Assembly: GCA_963741955.1 (NCBI GenBank)
Contig: CAVUKB010000004.1
Coordinates: 448,001 to 512,000, forward strand
DNA: 64,000 nt
Source of the DNA: an uncultured Acidobacteriota bacterium
Lineage (GTDB): Bacteria > Acidobacteriota > Thermoanaerobaculia > Gp7-AA8
Direction: 5' to 3'
Part shown: positions 18,960-58,725 of the stretch, one piece after another
How the letters are laid out: each line of letters starts with the position of its first letter
How positions within the stretch are numbered: the stretch's first letter is position 1
Program-made: the position numbers and the translations under genes
The notes under the pieces: generated by a model
Told to the model about the DNA's origin: nothing
Databases searched by the model: none
Seen by the model: the letters and a program-made list of their open reading frames with translations, nothing else

Positions 18960-19511
18960 GTGAGGTGCCGGACGAGCGAGACAGTCCCGAAGTACGTCAC
19001 CCGGGAGGATTTCTTGGAAGATCAGGCGTTCACACTGGTGGAGGATCACATCCCTCTCGCTGGCCTCGAGGAGACCGCGCGCGAGCTGGTGGGAATCTTC
19101 GGTGGAACGATGAAGTCCGTCGGCGACGACGAGATGCGATTCATCCTTCCCGAACGACGAGGCGTCGCGGCCAGCGGCGGAGTCGAATTCCATCTGAGAT
19201 GGGAAGAAGGGGGAAGCGAAGGGGGAACCGTCACCCTCACCGGTGAGCGCGAGGTCGCTGCGCCGAAGCTGCAGAGCATCGCGGTGCTGCTGGTGGGAGT
19301 GGTCGGCGCGCTCTTCTTCCTCGTCTGGCCGTTCTTCCCGAACCTCGGCGCGGTATCGTGGGTCGGCGGCATCCTCGCGCTCGGCGCGTACTTCATCACC
19401 CTGCGGCACAGCAAAGCGGGTGTGGCCGCGGATCTCCTCTCCCGGCTGGCGGATACGCAGCGCGTCGGGAGGAATGAAGAGGAGACGCCGGAGAGCGAGC
19501 CGCCGGCATAG
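18960..19511 (+). CDS. Hypothetical membrane protein (2 C-terminal TM helices)
   Basis: Protein-like composition; IAVLLVGVVGALFFLVWPFF and WVGGILALGAYFI; start uncertain. Confidence 0.75.
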   Translation: MRCRTSETVPKYVTREDFLEDQAFTLVEDHIPLAGLEETARELVGIFGGTMKSVGDDEMRFILPERRGVAASGGVEFHLRWEEGGSEGGTVTLTGEREVAAPKLQSIAVLLVGVVGALFFLVWPFFPNLGAVSWVGGILALGAYFITLRHSKAGVAADLLSRLADTQRVGRNEEETPESEPPA

Positions 19512-19579
19512 CGCGCAGACCCCGGGGTGCGGACCCCGCCCGGCGGGATCCGCTTCGAGATCGTGTTCTGTGCGACGGA

Positions 19580-20758
19580 TCAGAGCTTTTCGGTGAGGAT
19601 CGTCTTCGCGATCGTGGCGAGCTGCATGTTCGACGTTCCTTCGTAGATCTTTCCGATCTTCGAATCGCGCCAGAACTTCTCCACCGGATACTCCTTCGTG
19701 TAGCCGTTCCCGCCGAAGATCTCCACGACCAGCGATGTCACGTGCTCGCAGACCTGTGACGAGAAGAGCTTGGCCATCGCCGCCTCCCGGACGAACGGCT
19801 GACCTGCATCCTTGAGCCGCGCGGCGTTGTAGACCATCAGACGGGCCGCTTCGAGATCCGTCGCGGCCTGGGCGATCTGGAACTGGATGCCCTGGAAATC
19901 GGCGATCGGTTTTCCGAACTGGCGTCGTTCCTTCGAGAACGCGACCGCGTGCTCGAGCGCACCGCGCGCGATGCCGATCATCTGCGCCCCGATGCCGATC
20001 CGTCCTTCGTTCAGCGTCTCGATGGCGATCTTGTAGCCGCGACCGACTTCGCCGAGGACGTTCTCCTTCGGGACGTGGCACTCTTCGAGAATCAGCTCGC
20101 AGGTGGAAGAGGCGCGGATGCCGGTCTTGTCTTCCTTCTTACCGACAGTGAAGCCGGGGAAGTCACGTTCGATGAGGAACGCGGTGATTCCCTTGTATCC
20201 GGCGTCGGGATTCGCGTTGGCGAAGACGATGAAGAGCTGAGCCTCGCCGGCGTTGGTGATCCAGAGCTTCTGGCCGTTGAGAACCCAGTGGTCACCCTTG
20301 TCCGCTGCCTTGCAGGAGAGGGCGAACGCGTCGGAGCCCGAACCGGCCTCGGAGAGTGCGTATGCGCCGACCCACTCGCTGGCGAGCTTCGAGAGGTACT
20401 TCGCCTTCTGATCTTCCGAGCCCCAACGGATCACGGCATTGTTGACCAGAGTGTTCTGCACGTCGACCAGAACGCCGCAGGAGGCGTCGACGTGCGAGAG
20501 CTCCTCGACGACCAGGACCGCGTTGAAGAAGCTCGATCCGGCGCCGCCGAACTGTTCCGGTGTTTCGATCCCCATGATTCCGAGCTCGAAGAAGCTGCGA
20601 ACCAGATCGGGATCCATCTTCGCATCGTGATCCATCTTGTGGACCAGCGGGCGGATTTTCTCGACGGCGAAATCGCGCACGCTTTCCTGGAACATCTGCT
20701 CTTCCTCTGAGAGGGAGGTCAGGGGAAGGTGGGTTGTTTCGAGAGTTTCGACAGACAT
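19580..20758 (-). CDS. Acyl-CoA dehydrogenase (short/branched-chain type)
   Basis: ALSEAGSGSD, LNGQKLWITNA, GRIGIGAQ, RRQFGKPI, FGGNGY, KIYEGTSNMQ. Confidence 0.95.
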   Translation of the reverse strand: MSVETLETTHLPLTSLSEEEQMFQESVRDFAVEKIRPLVHKMDHDAKMDPDLVRSFFELGIMGIETPEQFGGAGSSFFNAVLVVEELSHVDASCGVLVDVQNTLVNNAVIRWGSEDQKAKYLSKLASEWVGAYALSEAGSGSDAFALSCKAADKGDHWVLNGQKLWITNAGEAQLFIVFANANPDAGYKGITAFLIERDFPGFTVGKKEDKTGIRASSTCELILEECHVPKENVLGEVGRGYKIAIETLNEGRIGIGAQMIGIARGALEHAVAFSKERRQFGKPIADFQGIQFQIAQAATDLEAARLMVYNAARLKDAGQPFVREAAMAKLFSSQVCEHVTSLVVEIFGGNGYTKEYPVEKFWRDSKIGKIYEGTSNMQLATIAKTILTEKL

Positions 20759-20901
20759 GAGGGGAACCTCCGCGGCGGCCGCGGAGGCGGCCATCCAGTG
20801 ATTTGGAGTGTGATTCTTTCCTGTTTGAAAGAGCGAGTCAACGTCGAGCTCGCAACGGACGGAACCGAGTGATGTCGGTACTTCGGGGACAGCATTGCCG
20901 G

Positions 20902-20990
20902 TGGTGCCCCGGGCCGGAATCGAACCGGCACGCCGCTCACGCGACTCGGGATTTTAAGTCCCGTGCGTCTACCAGTTCCGCCACCGGGGC
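20902..20990 (-). tRNA. tRNA-Leu(TAA)
   Basis: GCCCCGGTGGCGGAACTGGTAGACGC-ACGGGA-CTTAAAA-TCCCG, long variable arm, GGTTCGATTCC, CCA end. Confidence 0.97.
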
Positions 20991-21104
20991 CTTTACTGAA
21001 TCGTGGAGCCTCGAGCGGCGCCGGAATCGTTTCAGTTCGGCAGGACGATGATATCCCAATCCGGACCGGCGCCGGGAGCGCATTCCGAGGAAGGATGGGG
21101 AGGG

Positions 21105-21137
21105 GAAAAATGAAAAGGGCGCCGAAGAACGGCGCCC
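21105..21137 (-). terminator. Intrinsic terminator closing the candidate ncRNA
   Basis: GGGCGCCG-TTCTT-CGGCGCCC-TTTTCATTTTT on minus strand. Confidence 0.85.
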
Positions 21138-21462
21138 ATGGGGTGGGGTTACGAGCTACTTACCCCCGAACTATTAGAATCTTCCATCGAACCTAGTACC
21201 TCCTCCCCACTGAATTTCCGGCGGACCCACGTCAGCGAGACATGCCCGGTGGACGTGCCTCCCACCCCGCCTGCAGCGTGGACCGGATCGACCGCTCCTA
21301 CGCACCCTGTGGTGGAAGGGAGGAGCGGGAACTCGAATTCGTATCAAAGAGCGACGCGCTGCGACACCGGCGGCCACATTGCTGAGAACGCATCCGGCAT
21401 CAGTTCATTCCAACCAATTTCGGGAAGGGGCGTTCGGGAAGTTTTTTTGTACATCGGATTGC
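21113..21462 (-). ncRNA. Candidate structured ncRNA (~350 nt, long rod-like fold; 6S-like or novel)
   Basis: Own extended -10 promoter and terminator, no convincing long ORF, nested 5'/3' complementarity along the whole length. Confidence 0.6.
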
Positions 21463-21468
21463 GAAGAC

Positions 21469-21507
21469 ATTATAGCAACAATTTTTCGCAGCAGTATCAG
21501 AAAAATT
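21469..21507 (-). promoter_or_regulatory. Extended -10 sigma70 promoter with overlapping inverted repeat
   Basis: TGCTATAAT (21477-21469); AATTTTTC-N12-GAAAAATT at 21480-21507. Confidence 0.75.
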
Positions 21508-21557
21508 CGCGACTGCAAAACTGCTCCGGTCCGGTCCGAATGCATCCGTCATACCAG

Positions 21558-21592
21558 AAAAAAGCCGCGGCTCATCGAGGAGCCGCGGCTTT
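21558..21592 (-). terminator. rpoD intrinsic terminator
   Basis: AAAGCCGCGGCTC-CTCGAT-GAGCCGCGGCTTTTTT on minus strand. Confidence 0.88.
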
Positions 21593-21617
21593 CGATTCTG
21601 TCATTCAGTGACGCCGA

Positions 21618-23390
21618 TCAGAACGTGGCGTCGAGAAAGGGCCGGAGCTTCTTCGACCGCGACGGATGACGGAGCTTGCGGAGCGCCTTCGACTCGATCT
21701 GCCGGATCCGCTCACGGGTGACGTTGAACGAGCGGCCGACTTCCTCCAGGGTGTGCTCGGAGCCGTCGCCGACGCCGAAGCGCATCTTCAGGACCTGCTC
21801 CTCGCGCGGAGTGAGGGTCCGAAGCACCTTGTTCGTCTGCTCCTTGAGGTTCGACACGATCACGTGATCGATCGGTGAGACCGCGCTGCGGTCTTCGATG
21901 AAATCGCCGAGATGCGAATCTTCCTCTTCGCCGATCGGCGTCTCGAGGGAGATCGGCTCCTGGGCGATCTTCATGATCTTCCGCACCTTGCTGACCACCA
22001 TGTCCATCCGCTCCGCGATCTCCTCGGCGTTCGGCTCGCGGCCGAGCTCCTGAACCAGAGCGCGCGAAGTGCGGGTCAGTTTGTTGATCGTCTCGATCAT
22101 GTGTACCGGAATCCGGATGGTGCGCGCCTGGTCGGCGATCGCGCGGGTGATCGCCTGACGGATCCACCACGTCGCGTACGTCGAGAACTTGTAGCCGCGG
22201 CGGTACTCGAACTTCTCGACCGCTTTCATCAGCCCGATGTTCCCTTCCTGAATCAGGTCGAGAAACTGCAGGCCGCGATTGGTGTACTTCTTGGCGATGG
22301 AGACGACCAGGCGGAGGTTCGCGACGATCAGCTCCTGCTTGGCCTGTTCCGCGTCGTCCTCACCCTGGCGGATCTCCCGGATGGTCTTCTTGATGTCTTC
22401 GTGGGACGAGCCGTACCGCTCCTCGAGCTCGACCAGTCGGTCCTGGTACTTGTGAATGCGGCGCTTGTAGAAGTCGCGACGGGTCTTGTCCTTCTCCCGC
22501 TTGAGCTGCTGGTCGTCGTTGCGGACCATCGCCACGGTCTGGGAGAGCTCGGAGTCGATCTCGCGGAGCTTGTTGATCATCCGATTGCGGGTCTGAGGAG
22601 TGAAGTCGACCCGGCGCATCAGATTCGCGAGATCTTCCTTCCATCGCTCGATGTTGCGCTCGACGGTGGCCGGCTTCTTCGCGTCGGCCAGCTTCGCCTT
22701 GCCGTCCTTGATCTTCCGGTCGAGTTTCGCAATCTGATCGAAGATCTTGGTGATCTCGGCGATCTTGTCGGCGCCGGTCGCATCGCCGTCCATCTCGTCG
22801 TCGTTCGCGGCGAGATTGATCATCTCCTTGAACACCCGCGAATCCTTCCGGGCGCTCTCGTTGATCTTCAGGATCTCTTCGAGAATGATGCGATTCTGCG
22901 AGAGCGCCTTGTAGACGCGGCGCTCGCCGGCTTCGATCCGTTTCGCGATCTCGACCTCTCCCTCGCGATCGAGAAGCTTGACCGTACCCATCTCTCGCAG
23001 GTACATGCGGACCGGGTCGTTGGTCTTGTCGACGATCCCTGCAGCCGCTGCAGCGATCTCGGCCTGGATCTCCTCACGCTGGTCGACTTCCTTCTCTTCG
23101 CCGGAGTCGTCCATCGCCCCTCCCTTCTGGGAAGGGAGCTTCTCCGCGTCTTCGACCACTTCGATGCCGAGGTCGTTGAATCGGATGTAGATCTCGTCGA
23201 GCTCTTCCGGGATACTGGTGACTTCCTCGGGAAGGGTGTCGTAGATCTCGTCGTAGAGGAGGTATCCTTTTTCTTTGCCGATCGAAATGAGCTGTTTGAC
23301 CTCAGCGTACTTCTCTTCCACGCTCACATCGCCGACGCCCTGATCGATTGAATCTTCCAGTTCGAAGTCCGCTGAACCAAGACGTGACAT
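21618..23390 (-). CDS. rpoD: RNA polymerase primary sigma factor
   Basis: Region 1.1 ([12 protein letters not shown]), [63 protein letters not shown]; start uncertain. Confidence 0.97.
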
Positions 23391-23534
23391 ACGTTCCGTA
23401 GCTCCTTCCTCTGGTCGCGCTGAGGCTGTTCTGCCTCGATGGGGCCGCATCCCGGGTGCCGGGCCGCGCGGGCGCGCAGACGCATATTGCGGCCTTTGGG
23501 CGAGGACACCTTCGTAATCGCTGGAGGACAATAA

Positions 23535-25277
23535 TTATTTCAGTTTGTGCAGCTTTCGCGAGAGCTCACTCTTCTCGCCGAGCAGGCGGATCTCCTTCTC
23601 TCCATCACCTTCCCTCTGGGCCTCTTGCAGTGCGCTCTGGATTTCCCGGAGCTGCCGGTTGATGAACCGTCGCTCCAGGTGTTGGATGGTCGTCTCGAGA
23701 GAATCGAAACCACGCTCTTCGCTTTCTTCCCCTAGTGCAATCTCGGAAAGTCGCGTCAGAACAGCCTCGCCCCTAAGATGGGTCGCGATTTTCGAGAAAT
23801 CAAGAGGCTCCGTAGCTGGAAGTGAGTCTTTGATGGTAAGATAGATCGTTTTGCAGGCATCGTCCTCGAAATATTCTTCCCGCAATCTTTCAACCGTTTC
23901 CGCCGGCATCCCATTTCCGAGAACCGCCGCGAGGACTCTTCGCTCGCCATCCGCGACCGGCGCCATCGCGACCTTTTCCCGTGTCGAGCCCTGCCCCCCC
24001 CGCCCTCGAAGCATTGACCAGACCGTCTCGAATTCCAGCCGGAGTCCGTCCGCGATCCGCTGCGCGGCGTCATTTCGCGACACGCCGGTCACCGCCGAGA
24101 GGAGAGGGACGAACGATTCGAGCTTCTCCTGCTTTTCGCGCGATCCCATCGCCGAGGGATTCGGCGCGAACTCCCGGAGCGCGAACTCGAAGACGTCATC
24201 GGCGTTTCCGAGCGCCTCCATGAACGCTTCCAGTCCGTGCTCGCGCAGGTAGCTGTCCGGATCGGAACCGCGCTCCAGCGCGAGCACTTCCACCGCCACC
24301 CCCGCGGAGAGAAGGATCGGTGCGGCGCGGAGTGCGGCCTTGCGTCCGGCATCGTCTCCGTCGTAGGAGATCACCACCCGGCGACAGAGCCGGCCGAGGA
24401 TGCTCGCCTGCGCCGGAGTGAGGGCGGTACCCATCGAAGCGACGACGCCGTTCACTCCTGCTGCGTCGAGAGTGATGCAGTCGAAGTACCCTTCGACCAG
24501 AATCGCGCGATCCATCCGGCGGATCTGATCCTTCGCCCGGTGAAGATTGAACAGTAGCTGCGACTTGTTGAACAGCTGCGATTCCGGCGAGTTGAGATAC
24601 TTCGGATCACTTCCGTCCAGCGACCGTCCGCCGAAGCCGAGGACCGTTCCTGATTCCGAGTGGATCGGAACGATCAGCCGGTTCCGGAAGCGGTCGTAGT
24701 GCCCCGATCCGCTCTTGCGCGGGAGAATCAGCCCGGCCGCTTCGAGCCGCTCGGCGTTGTGCTTCCGTCCGAGCCGCCGCAGGAGATAGTCCCACGCGTC
24801 GGGGGCGTAACCGAACCCGTACTTCTTCCACACTTCCCGCGCGACTCCGCGCGTGGCGAGATATTGAATGGCGGGATTCGGTTCCCACTCCAGCGCCTGG
24901 TGGAACGCTTCTGCAGCTTCCTCGACGATCGATCCGAGCTCGTCGCGCTCCCGGTTCTCCTTCTCCCGCACCCGGCGTTTGGGAAGTTCGATTCCCACCC
25001 GCTCCGCGATGGACGCAACGGCCTCCGGAAACGTCATCCGTTCGGTCAGCATGAGGAACTTGAAAACGTCACCTCCGGCCTGGCAGCCGAAGCAGTAGAA
25101 GAGCCCTTTTTCGCGATCGACCGTGAAGGATGGAGTCTTCTCGCGATGGAACGGACAGAGCCCCTTGTGCCGGCGTCCCGCCGACTTGAGCGGCGTGACC
25201 TGACCGACGATCTCCACCAGGTCGGCCGACTGCCGCACCTGAGAGATGATCGCGTCGTTGAGATCTACGAAAGACAT
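23535..25277 (-). CDS. dnaG: DNA primase
   Basis: CPFHREKTPSF...CFGC zinc finger, YDRFRNR, KYLNSPES, VEGYFD, YDGDDAG, DPD. Confidence 0.97.
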   Translation of the reverse strand: MSFVDLNDAIISQVRQSADLVEIVGQVTPLKSAGRRHKGLCPFHREKTPSFTVDREKGLFYCFGCQAGGDVFKFLMLTERMTFPEAVASIAERVGIELPKRRVREKENRERDELGSIVEEAAEAFHQALEWEPNPAIQYLATRGVAREVWKKYGFGYAPDAWDYLLRRLGRKHNAERLEAAGLILPRKSGSGHYDRFRNRLIVPIHSESGTVLGFGGRSLDGSDPKYLNSPESQLFNKSQLLFNLHRAKDQIRRMDRAILVEGYFDCITLDAAGVNGVVASMGTALTPAQASILGRLCRRVVISYDGDDAGRKAALRAAPILLSAGVAVEVLALERGSDPDSYLREHGLEAFMEALGNADDVFEFALREFAPNPSAMGSREKQEKLESFVPLLSAVTGVSRNDAAQRIADGLRLEFETVWSMLRGRGGQGSTREKVAMAPVADGERRVLAAVLGNGMPAETVERLREEYFEDDACKTIYLTIKDSLPATEPLDFSKIATHLRGEAVLTRLSEIALGEESEERGFDSLETTIQHLERRFINRQLREIQSALQEAQREGDGEKEIRLLGEKSELSRKLHKLK

Positions 25278-58648: not shown

Positions 58649-58725
58649 GCGCCCATAGCTCAGCTGGATAGAGCGTCGGCCTCCGGAGCCGAAGGTCAGA
58701 GGTTCGAATCCTCTTGGGCGCACCA
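58649..58725 (+). tRNA. tRNA-Arg(CCG)
   Basis: GCGCCCATAGCTCAGCTGGATAGAGCG-TCGGC-CTCCGGA-GCCGA-AGGTC-AGAGGTTCGAATCCTCT-TGGGCGC-ACCA. Confidence 0.97.

Follow-up and report, generated by a model that had tools for sequence, protein, structure and literature searches.

The window analyzed here is a 64,000-nucleotide (nt) stretch of an uncultured Acidobacteriota genome (contig CAVUKB010000004.1, positions 448,001 to 512,000) and carries, on its minus strand directly downstream of rpoD, a predicted stand-alone RNA gene. We find that this element is an undescribed RNA family, tightly conserved in one order of soil Acidobacteriota. The conserved core (21331-21198; minus strand, as are all features of the RNA given below) contains a covariation-supported, pseudoknotted part of ~125 nt and ends in an invariant Shine-Dalgarno sequence, which precedes a 12-codon frame and an intrinsic terminator. 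One strand of the core is also complementary to the Shine-Dalgarno sequence, so that two competing pairings are possible. Based on these features of the sequence, our favored explanation is that the RNA would be a self-contained translational switch or a dual-function RNA, with ribosome transit through its 3' hairpins as the output; we assign this explanation a probability of about 0.4.

Conserved fold of the core

The fold was identified by comparison of relatives. A conserved sequence pattern was present in 128 loci. Flanks were complete for 119 of these, which include the 102 distinct sequences that make up alignments A2 and A3. The structure tested against them comprises 40 pairs in seven helices (P0, P1, P1b, the pseudoknot, P2, P2b and P3). 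Standard pairs account for 96.5% of the 3974 cells, compared to 37-55% after displacement of the 3' partners by 1-3 columns. Compensatory changes were found for 24 of the 40 pairs, and none of 500 column shuffles reached the observed value on any of five measures.

P1 (21328-21323 with 21297-21292) is paired in 99.8% of cells, with one pair varying between U-A (76), C-G (12) and U-G (13). P1b (21320-21317 with 21308-21305) is paired in 99.3%, and its closing pair is C-G (42), U-A (30) or U-G (25). The P1/P1b hairpin (21292..21328) has a C-rich 5' strand, CCGCUCCUCCCU. The P1b loop, CCACC (21315-21311), forms the pseudoknot with GGUGG (21266-21262), located just before P3, and 99.6% of these cells are paired. 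The pseudoknot also covaries: at column pair 119/176, 93 rows have C-G and 9 have U-A, and U-A occurs once at another pair; all five pairs can form in the window's own sequence. P2 (21287-21282 with 21222-21217) is paired in 100% of cells but is invariant and, thus, uninformative with respect to covariation. In P2b (21281-21275 with 21233-21227; 97.3% of cells paired), five of the seven pairs show compensatory changes, as do all six pairs of P3 (21261-21256 with 21242-21237; 98.7%). The window's own P3 is a compensated variant, GAGGCA/UGUCUC, with its register taken from the single-sequence fold; MAFFT had set it two columns off. The seventh helix, P0, belongs to the poorly aligned 5' arm of the relatives, where 79.5% of cells are paired and six of six pairs are compensatory. 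The core is, therefore, an aptamer-like conserved fold with covariation support, as is expected of a translational riboswitch.

Shine-Dalgarno tract, mini-ORF and 3' half

An invariant purine tract, GGGGAGGAGGU (21208-21198), follows P2 by 7-9 bases and constitutes a Shine-Dalgarno sequence. The exact tract is present in 128/128 pattern loci and in 35/35 loci recruited by a covariance model (see below). The 3' end of the genome's own 16S ribosomal RNA reads ...GGAUCACCUCCUUUCU and, thus, its last 11 nt can pair with GGGGAGGAGGU through 8 Watson-Crick and 3 G-U pairs. This 11-mer occurs 7 times in the 5.4-Mb genome.

Downstream of the tract lies a short open reading frame (mini-ORF; 21187-21149) that runs from an AUG at 21187-21185 to UCG UAA and consists of 12 codons plus the stop, with the deduced peptide MEDSNSSGVSSS. 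The original prediction for this region had overlooked the frame, along with the strong Shine-Dalgarno sequence and the pseudoknot. The start codon is kept in all 128 loci, as AUG in 127 and GUG in one. The frame has 12 codons in 101 loci, 13 in 17, 16 in five and 11 in four, and ends in UAG (82), UAA (34) or UGA (11), never in UGG. Alignment A2 was built with no reference to reading frames; there, the interval between AUG and aligned stop measures 36 nt for 83 rows, 39 nt for 11, 33 nt for 2 and 48 nt for 3. Three other rows deviate: one by -1, with a new in-frame stop two codons on, and two by +1/+2, which reflects gap placement only. In contrast, only 15 of the 62 distinct length differences in seven other variable stretches of the RNA are multiples of three. 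Codon usage was analyzed in the 61 frames of 12 codons found among 80 distinct frames. The last sense codon specifies Ser in all 61 (UCG, UCC, UCU, UCA and one AGC), and position 3 is Cys in 46. The peptides of different lineages are unrelated, as illustrated by MEDSNSSGVSSS, MDCSNKPEGASS, MSDHKSEEGRSS, MVSNKRHMGDGS and MNQSYIRTGADS.

Between the stop codon and the terminator lies a C-rich tract, CCCCACCCC (21148-21140). RNAalifold predicts two partners for it: a G-run within the ORF, which would place the stop codon in a hairpin, and the initial Gs of the Shine-Dalgarno sequence, which would give helix P4. Among 96 distinct 3' halves, 3 were mis-trimmed and dropped, and the remaining 93 were folded individually. 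The stop codon is enclosed by at least three pairs from the second half of the frame in 76 of these folds, and in 45, the last CCCC is paired with the four Gs that open the purine tract. The G-tract/C-tract helix P4 pairs in 93.2% of cells, without covariation.

Competing pairings and a possible switch

Within the purine tract, GGGGAGGAG is perfectly complementary to the 5' strand of P1/P1b, CUCCUCCCY. The resulting alternative helix can pair in 97.7% of cells, with nine possible pairs in 83 of the 102 sequences, eight in 15, seven in three and six in one. When the core and tract were folded freely without pseudoknots, the optimum held the alternative helix (median difference of 0.0 kcal/mol), and at least 6 of 9 Shine-Dalgarno tract bases paired with the P1 5' strand in 89/102 free folds. 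The covariation-supported fold lies a median of 8.3 kcal/mol above the free optimum, with the pseudoknot uncounted. In the alternative fold, the five pairs of the pseudoknot become nested, so that they are compatible with both states. Two bases of the P1 internal loop (CU) are conserved, and it is only in the alternative helix that they could pair.

In the model that we favor, the C-rich 5' strand of P1/P1b would choose between these two partners. In state A, it would pair within the core, as supported by covariation, and leave the ribosome-binding site open. In state B, the calculated optimum, it would pair with GGGGAGGAG and block the site. A factor that stabilizes the pseudoknotted core, such as a ligand, a protein, Mg2+ or temperature, would then decide ribosome loading. 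Transit of a ribosome over the 12 codons would melt the stop-codon hairpin and either free or occupy the C-rich 3' tract. As the peptide seems to be unselected (see below), the passage itself may be what matters.

Copy number and distribution

The genome has a single copy of the element, as BLAST and the covariance model each give one match. The element is, thus, not a miniature inverted-repeat transposable element, for which many dispersed copies had been named beforehand as the sign. BLAST detected the element in 24 of 41 genomes, including the window's own: 21/24 of the same family, 2/2 of the sister family within the order, and 0/14 of other families of the class. The covariance model, which was built from the core (152 positions, 29 pairs), found it in 35/35 genomes of the family and in 1/1 of the sister family, once in each with the exception of the family genome G022, which has a second, weak match (E 0.003). 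G022 is unpublished and contributes one alignment row (locus L014) and one unit to the BLAST and covariance-model tallies; none of our conclusions rests on this genome. The other 114 genomes of the class sample gave no credible match. One match of 24.6 bits, from a different family of the class, was rejected, since it lies within coding-looking sequence and has no Shine-Dalgarno sequence, frame or terminator. In a sample of the phylum, the model matched 4/4 and 1/1 genomes of the two families and had no credible match in the other 145; two matches of ~21 bits are at chance level for 151 genomes.

A 20-base pattern was taken from the conserved part and matched exactly against one genome per species, which yielded 108 stretches. 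Among the titles listed, which cover 80 of the 108, all are Thermoanaerobaculia or Acidobacteriota metagenome-assembled genomes. The exact pattern is retained in 35/35 loci that were recruited by the covariance model, and the invariance of this stretch is, therefore, not a search artifact. Judged by these homology searches, the RNA gene is specific to one order of the Thermoanaerobaculia, a lineage in which it is universally retained.

Evaluation of alternative explanations

Several results weigh against the switch that we favor. Unlike known riboswitches, the RNA has no regulated downstream gene, as the 12-codon frame is followed by a terminator, and none of the results suggests a ligand or partner. 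No compensatory change was found in the alternative helix among the 102 sequences. Moreover, the helix is broken by 18 uncompensated mismatches, 13 in rows with a C at one position of its 5' strand and 5 in rows where this strand is changed otherwise, and the change in the 13 rows covaries with P1 instead. The switch is, therefore, a conserved possibility and not a demonstrated one. GGAGG and the AUG are 11 nt apart here, and 11-14 nt apart in relatives; genome-wide, GGAGG is most enriched 4-7 nt before the candidate starts of long ORFs, with a minor secondary rise at 11 nt. Codon periodicity is absent from the 61 frames (entropy of 0.80/0.76/0.71 at positions 1/2/3), and the synonymous share is 0.30 in the frame versus 0.36 and 0.30 in the other two. 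Thus, there is no sign of a selected peptide, and the argument for translation derives from conservation of the frame. We conclude that the peptide is apparently not under ordinary selection and that the 12-codon frame is probably translated; if so, it is the passage of the ribosome, and not the product, that is conserved. The lack of codon periodicity and synonymous excess, together with a spacing outside the genome's 4-7 nt peak, would also fit a purely non-coding RNA, serving as a trans-acting regulator or a ribonucleoprotein scaffold. The frame would then be a by-product, and the purine tract, AUG region and C-tracts would serve a structural purpose or bind a partner such as a protein, the 30S subunit or the 3' tail of the 16S rRNA. 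Such a role would agree with the near-invariant core, with a pseudoknot of a kind found in RNAs that have conserved partners, and with the predicted base pairing of the frame's G-run and stop-codon region. It does not readily explain why the AUG-to-stop interval, unlike the other variable stretches, changes in threes, why the start is always kept while the stops interchange, or why the terminal Ser is retained through both UCN and AGC codons. In addition, neither Hfq nor CsrA (PF02599) was matched in the genome, which is 99.1% complete. We regard a purely non-coding role as possible but rather doubtful. A further proposal combines both aspects in a "translated non-coding RNA", in which the 11-nt Shine-Dalgarno sequence would dock the 30S subunit on a pseudoknotted sensor and the passage of the ribosome would itself be the signal, releasing the C-rich tract to act in trans. 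Ribosome passage would then report translation capacity or a bound ligand, and the RNA would be neither a riboswitch, having no regulated gene, nor a classical small RNA. We consider this proposal unlikely.

If, instead, the 12-residue peptide were the product, the folded RNA would be only a regulatory 5' leader of a small-protein gene. Conservation of the frame, start and stop, the very strong ribosome-binding site, the C-terminal Ser and the prevalent Cys at position 3 are all consistent with such a gene. Nevertheless, the peptides are almost wholly different between lineages and lack a synonymous excess, the conserved Gly codon coincides with the G-run that is predicted to pair, and no modifying or export genes are conserved beside the RNA gene, which makes this interpretation improbable. 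The frame might also be part of a leader-peptide attenuator governing whether transcription continues into the downstream genes. It stops 11 nt before the terminator stem here, and tRNA-Leu(UAA) (20990-20902) and then an acyl-CoA dehydrogenase gene follow, the former on the same strand as the RNA. The dehydrogenase gene lies downstream in 72 loci; its strand matches that of the RNA in 60 of these and is the opposite one in 12. Of the 76 loci with tRNA-Leu(UAA) at most 3 kb downstream, 28 have it on the same strand and 48 on the opposite strand. In addition, the distance from stop to terminator varies up to ~29 nt, and the frame has no run of regulatory codons. An attenuator is, thus, very improbable. 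The original prediction of an elongated 6S-like RNA, with the sigma-70 holoenzyme as its binding partner, is the least credible of the alternatives. The RNA does directly follow rpoD here and in the sister family, and in 32 loci, rpoD lies upstream on the same strand, at a distance of 0.4-7.4 kb. However, this interpretation is already contradicted on structure, as described in the next section.

The rod-like fold and 6S RNA

The 6S-like interpretation was based on a nested, rod-shaped fold, and the complementarities listed for it (H1-H8) are all present in this one sequence, with 9/9, 5/5, 9/10, 5/5, 4/4, 5/5, 6/6, 6/6, 6/6 and 4/4 pairs. The rod does not exceed chance, however. For 21465-21100, the minimum free energy amounts to -132.7 kcal/mol, versus -133.6 +/- 5.8 kcal/mol for dinucleotide shuffles (z 0.15), of which 48/100 fold at least as well. 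We mapped the rod helices onto a MAFFT alignment of the 102 distinct full-length homologues. Among the 101 relatives, just 23-45% of cells are paired for the outer helices H1-H6, versus 99.8% and 98.5% for the two apical helices, which correspond to P1 and P1b. The outer rod is, thus, not conserved. Helices H3b, H5 and H6 occupy strands of the covariation-supported P2, P3 loop and P2b. RNAalifold predicted no long-range 5'-3' pairing and no rod from the full-length alignment of 102 sequences. Similarly, RNAduplex comparison of the 5' arm with the AUG/ORF region, with 60 shuffles per sequence, gave a complementarity that did not surpass that of shuffles (mean z of -0.28 over the 102 sequences, 9 of them below -2); the value for the window's own sequence is +0.72. 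Thus, a visually convincing rod in GC-rich sequence held no signal, and the true structure emerged only from the comparison of relatives.

A canonical 6S RNA (RF00013; 92.5 bits) is encoded on the same contig, ~43 kb past the end of the window (G000:C4:555271-555468, plus strand). RF00013 itself has no match at the gathering score on the window and none at E<=10 on 20950-21650. The genome also encodes transfer-messenger RNA (tmRNA; C7:535055-535405, 198.9 bits), RNase P RNA (C5:115801-116172, 303.1 bits) and signal recognition particle RNA (C13:13808-13905, 67.9 bits) elsewhere. The suggestion that the element might be an undescribed class of non-coding RNA is borne out by Rfam 15, which has no match within it at the gathering score or at E<=10. 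For 20 homologous loci, matches at E<=10 were limited to tRNAs and to scattered sub-threshold matches (BjrC68, ctRNA_p42d, STnc40 and SorX) located on the terminator hairpin. ARAGORN found only tRNA-Leu in 19000-23000 and no tRNA-like domain in the element. Our literature search found no description of the RNA, although a motif given only in the supplement of a motif-discovery paper could escape such a search. In one relative, a long and apparently perfect hairpin beside the RNA locus (L174:6-97) scores 30-49 bits, on either strand, against several models of plant microRNA precursors; most likely, this is an inverted repeat or a terminator, and not a microRNA.

Comparison with known systems

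The RNA resembles translational ON-riboswitches in its compact covarying core, loop pseudoknot and invariant junction bases, and in having one strand that can pair either within the core or with the ribosome-binding site. It differs in having only a 12-codon frame to regulate, with a terminator at once after it, in matching no riboswitch of Rfam, and in that the switching helix lacks covariation support. Dual-function small RNAs that encode a small peptide include SgrS/SgrT, RNAIII/delta-haemolysin, SR1/SR1P and Spot 42/SpfP. With these, the element shares a stand-alone transcript (predicted here) with its own promoter and terminator, and the combination of a folded part with a short frame that has a ribosome-binding site. 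However, the 12-codon frame is shorter, the peptide is unconserved, and Hfq was not detected in the genome.

Similar to tmRNA (SsrA), the element is a pseudoknot-rich RNA with a short frame and a stop codon in a hairpin, and would be both RNA and message. It has no tRNA-like domain or match to RF00023, unlike tmRNA, which is present in normal form elsewhere in the genome; in addition, the frame has a start codon and a Shine-Dalgarno sequence, in contrast to the tag frame of tmRNA. It shares with 6S RNA (SsrS) the character of a stand-alone RNA gene of the abundant type, adjoining rpoD in this genome, but the rod and bubble are unconserved and the element is about twice as long. In leader-peptide attenuators such as rnTrpL/peTrpL of Sinorhizobium, the released RNA and the peptide act independently. 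The element is similar in that a short frame ends near an intrinsic terminator and the terminated RNA would be the product; it differs in lacking a downstream biosynthetic operon and runs of regulatory codons, and in having a large pseudoknotted domain upstream of the frame. A protein sponge of the CsrB/RsmZ type would require a partner of the CsrA family, which, as noted above, was not found in this genome.

The design is, thus, unusual in combining a sensor-like pseudoknotted core, a maximal ribosome-binding site and a mini-frame that is conserved in length and free in sequence, with no gene to regulate. If the favored explanation is correct, the element would represent a large and intricately folded RNA family from a soil-abundant, mostly uncultured phylum with almost no characterized regulatory RNA, and would provide a concrete test case of ribosome transit as the output of a regulatory RNA.

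Predicted transcription unit

The rpoD ORF (21618-23531, minus strand) carries Sigma70 regions 1.1-4, and direct reading of the sequence places its stop codon at 21620-21618. The intrinsic terminator of rpoD (21557..21590), a hairpin of AGCCGCGGCUC and GAGCCGCGGCU followed by a U-run, forms the upstream boundary and lies outside the RNA. Next is an extended -10-like promoter element, TGCTATAAT (21469..21477), from which we predict an RNA start near 21462 and a length of ~355 nt. The 3' end is provided by a second intrinsic terminator (21107..21137), GGGCGCCG-UUCUU-CGGCGCCC plus a U-run, whose stem has 8 pairs, all G-C, in the terminator scan; this terminator is kept across the homologue alignments. 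Direct reading and the terminator scan, thus, agree with the original placement of the two terminators and the extended -10, and the presence of a promoter-like site and a terminator of its own, without a long ORF, is consistent with the proposed stand-alone transcription unit. No credible long ORF is present, as had been noted: the three long ORFs that overlap the RNA region match 0 families of Pfam, and any long frame would be disrupted by the length variation (-4 to +6) of the P3 loop and other stretches.

In 85/102 relatives, an aligned TTGCNA serves as the -35 box, with a TATCAT-like -10 box 16-17 nt farther on. This predicted promoter (TTGCGA or TTGCTA, 16-17 nt, TATCAT-like) lies a median of 230 nt before the anchor, which suggests RNAs similar in length to the ~355 nt predicted here. 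The promoter layout in the window is, therefore, different. The TTGCTA/TTGCGA word is now contained within the extended -10 (TGCTATAAT; 21469-21478), and the aligned -10 box is degenerate, which has the appearance of promoter turnover.

The 5' arm (21351..21462) is variable and poorly conserved in the alignments. In relatives, it ends with the small covarying hairpin P0, followed by a UCUUUGA motif (21350-21344 here). Two further candidates in the relatives, a hairpin of UCUUUGA with the bases just 5' of P1 and a second ORF from a conserved CAUGCAC near the predicted start, were rejected because of their inconsistent presence, with alignments judged by eye. The 5'-arm motifs CUGCAAUAAAC and CCUAGUAUACG of relatives resemble, and do not complement, the mini-ORF words UCUAAUAAACC and CCUAGUAAACC. 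An old internal duplication or paired binding sites are possible origins of this resemblance, which is absent from the window's own sequence.

Genomic neighborhood

Neighboring genes were counted by tblastn with three query proteins. The immediate upstream neighbor in 111 of the 128 loci (114 judgeable) is a divergently transcribed, secreted cupredoxin-like protein of ~220 residues, for example L007:594-1262 (minus strand), whose aligned start is ~280-350 nt from the anchor. A His...Cys-x2-His-x-x-Met pattern, seen by eye in this protein, is reminiscent of type-1 copper sites. Pfam gave only a sub-threshold match to CarboxypepD_reg. The window's genome does not have a close copy of the protein; the best relative, on contig C6, is 30% identical. 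Immediate adjacency of rpoD (<=551 nt) was observed in 3/128 loci, including the window's own and that of the sister family. Given the variable strand and distance of its neighbors, the RNA gene resides in a conserved neighborhood, yet is tied to no single neighbor.

In the window, dnaG (primase; 23535-25277, minus strand) and rpoD are on the same strand and 3 nt apart, the classic gene order of macromolecular synthesis. A second tRNA gene is located at 58649-58722 (plus strand; 72.5 bits).

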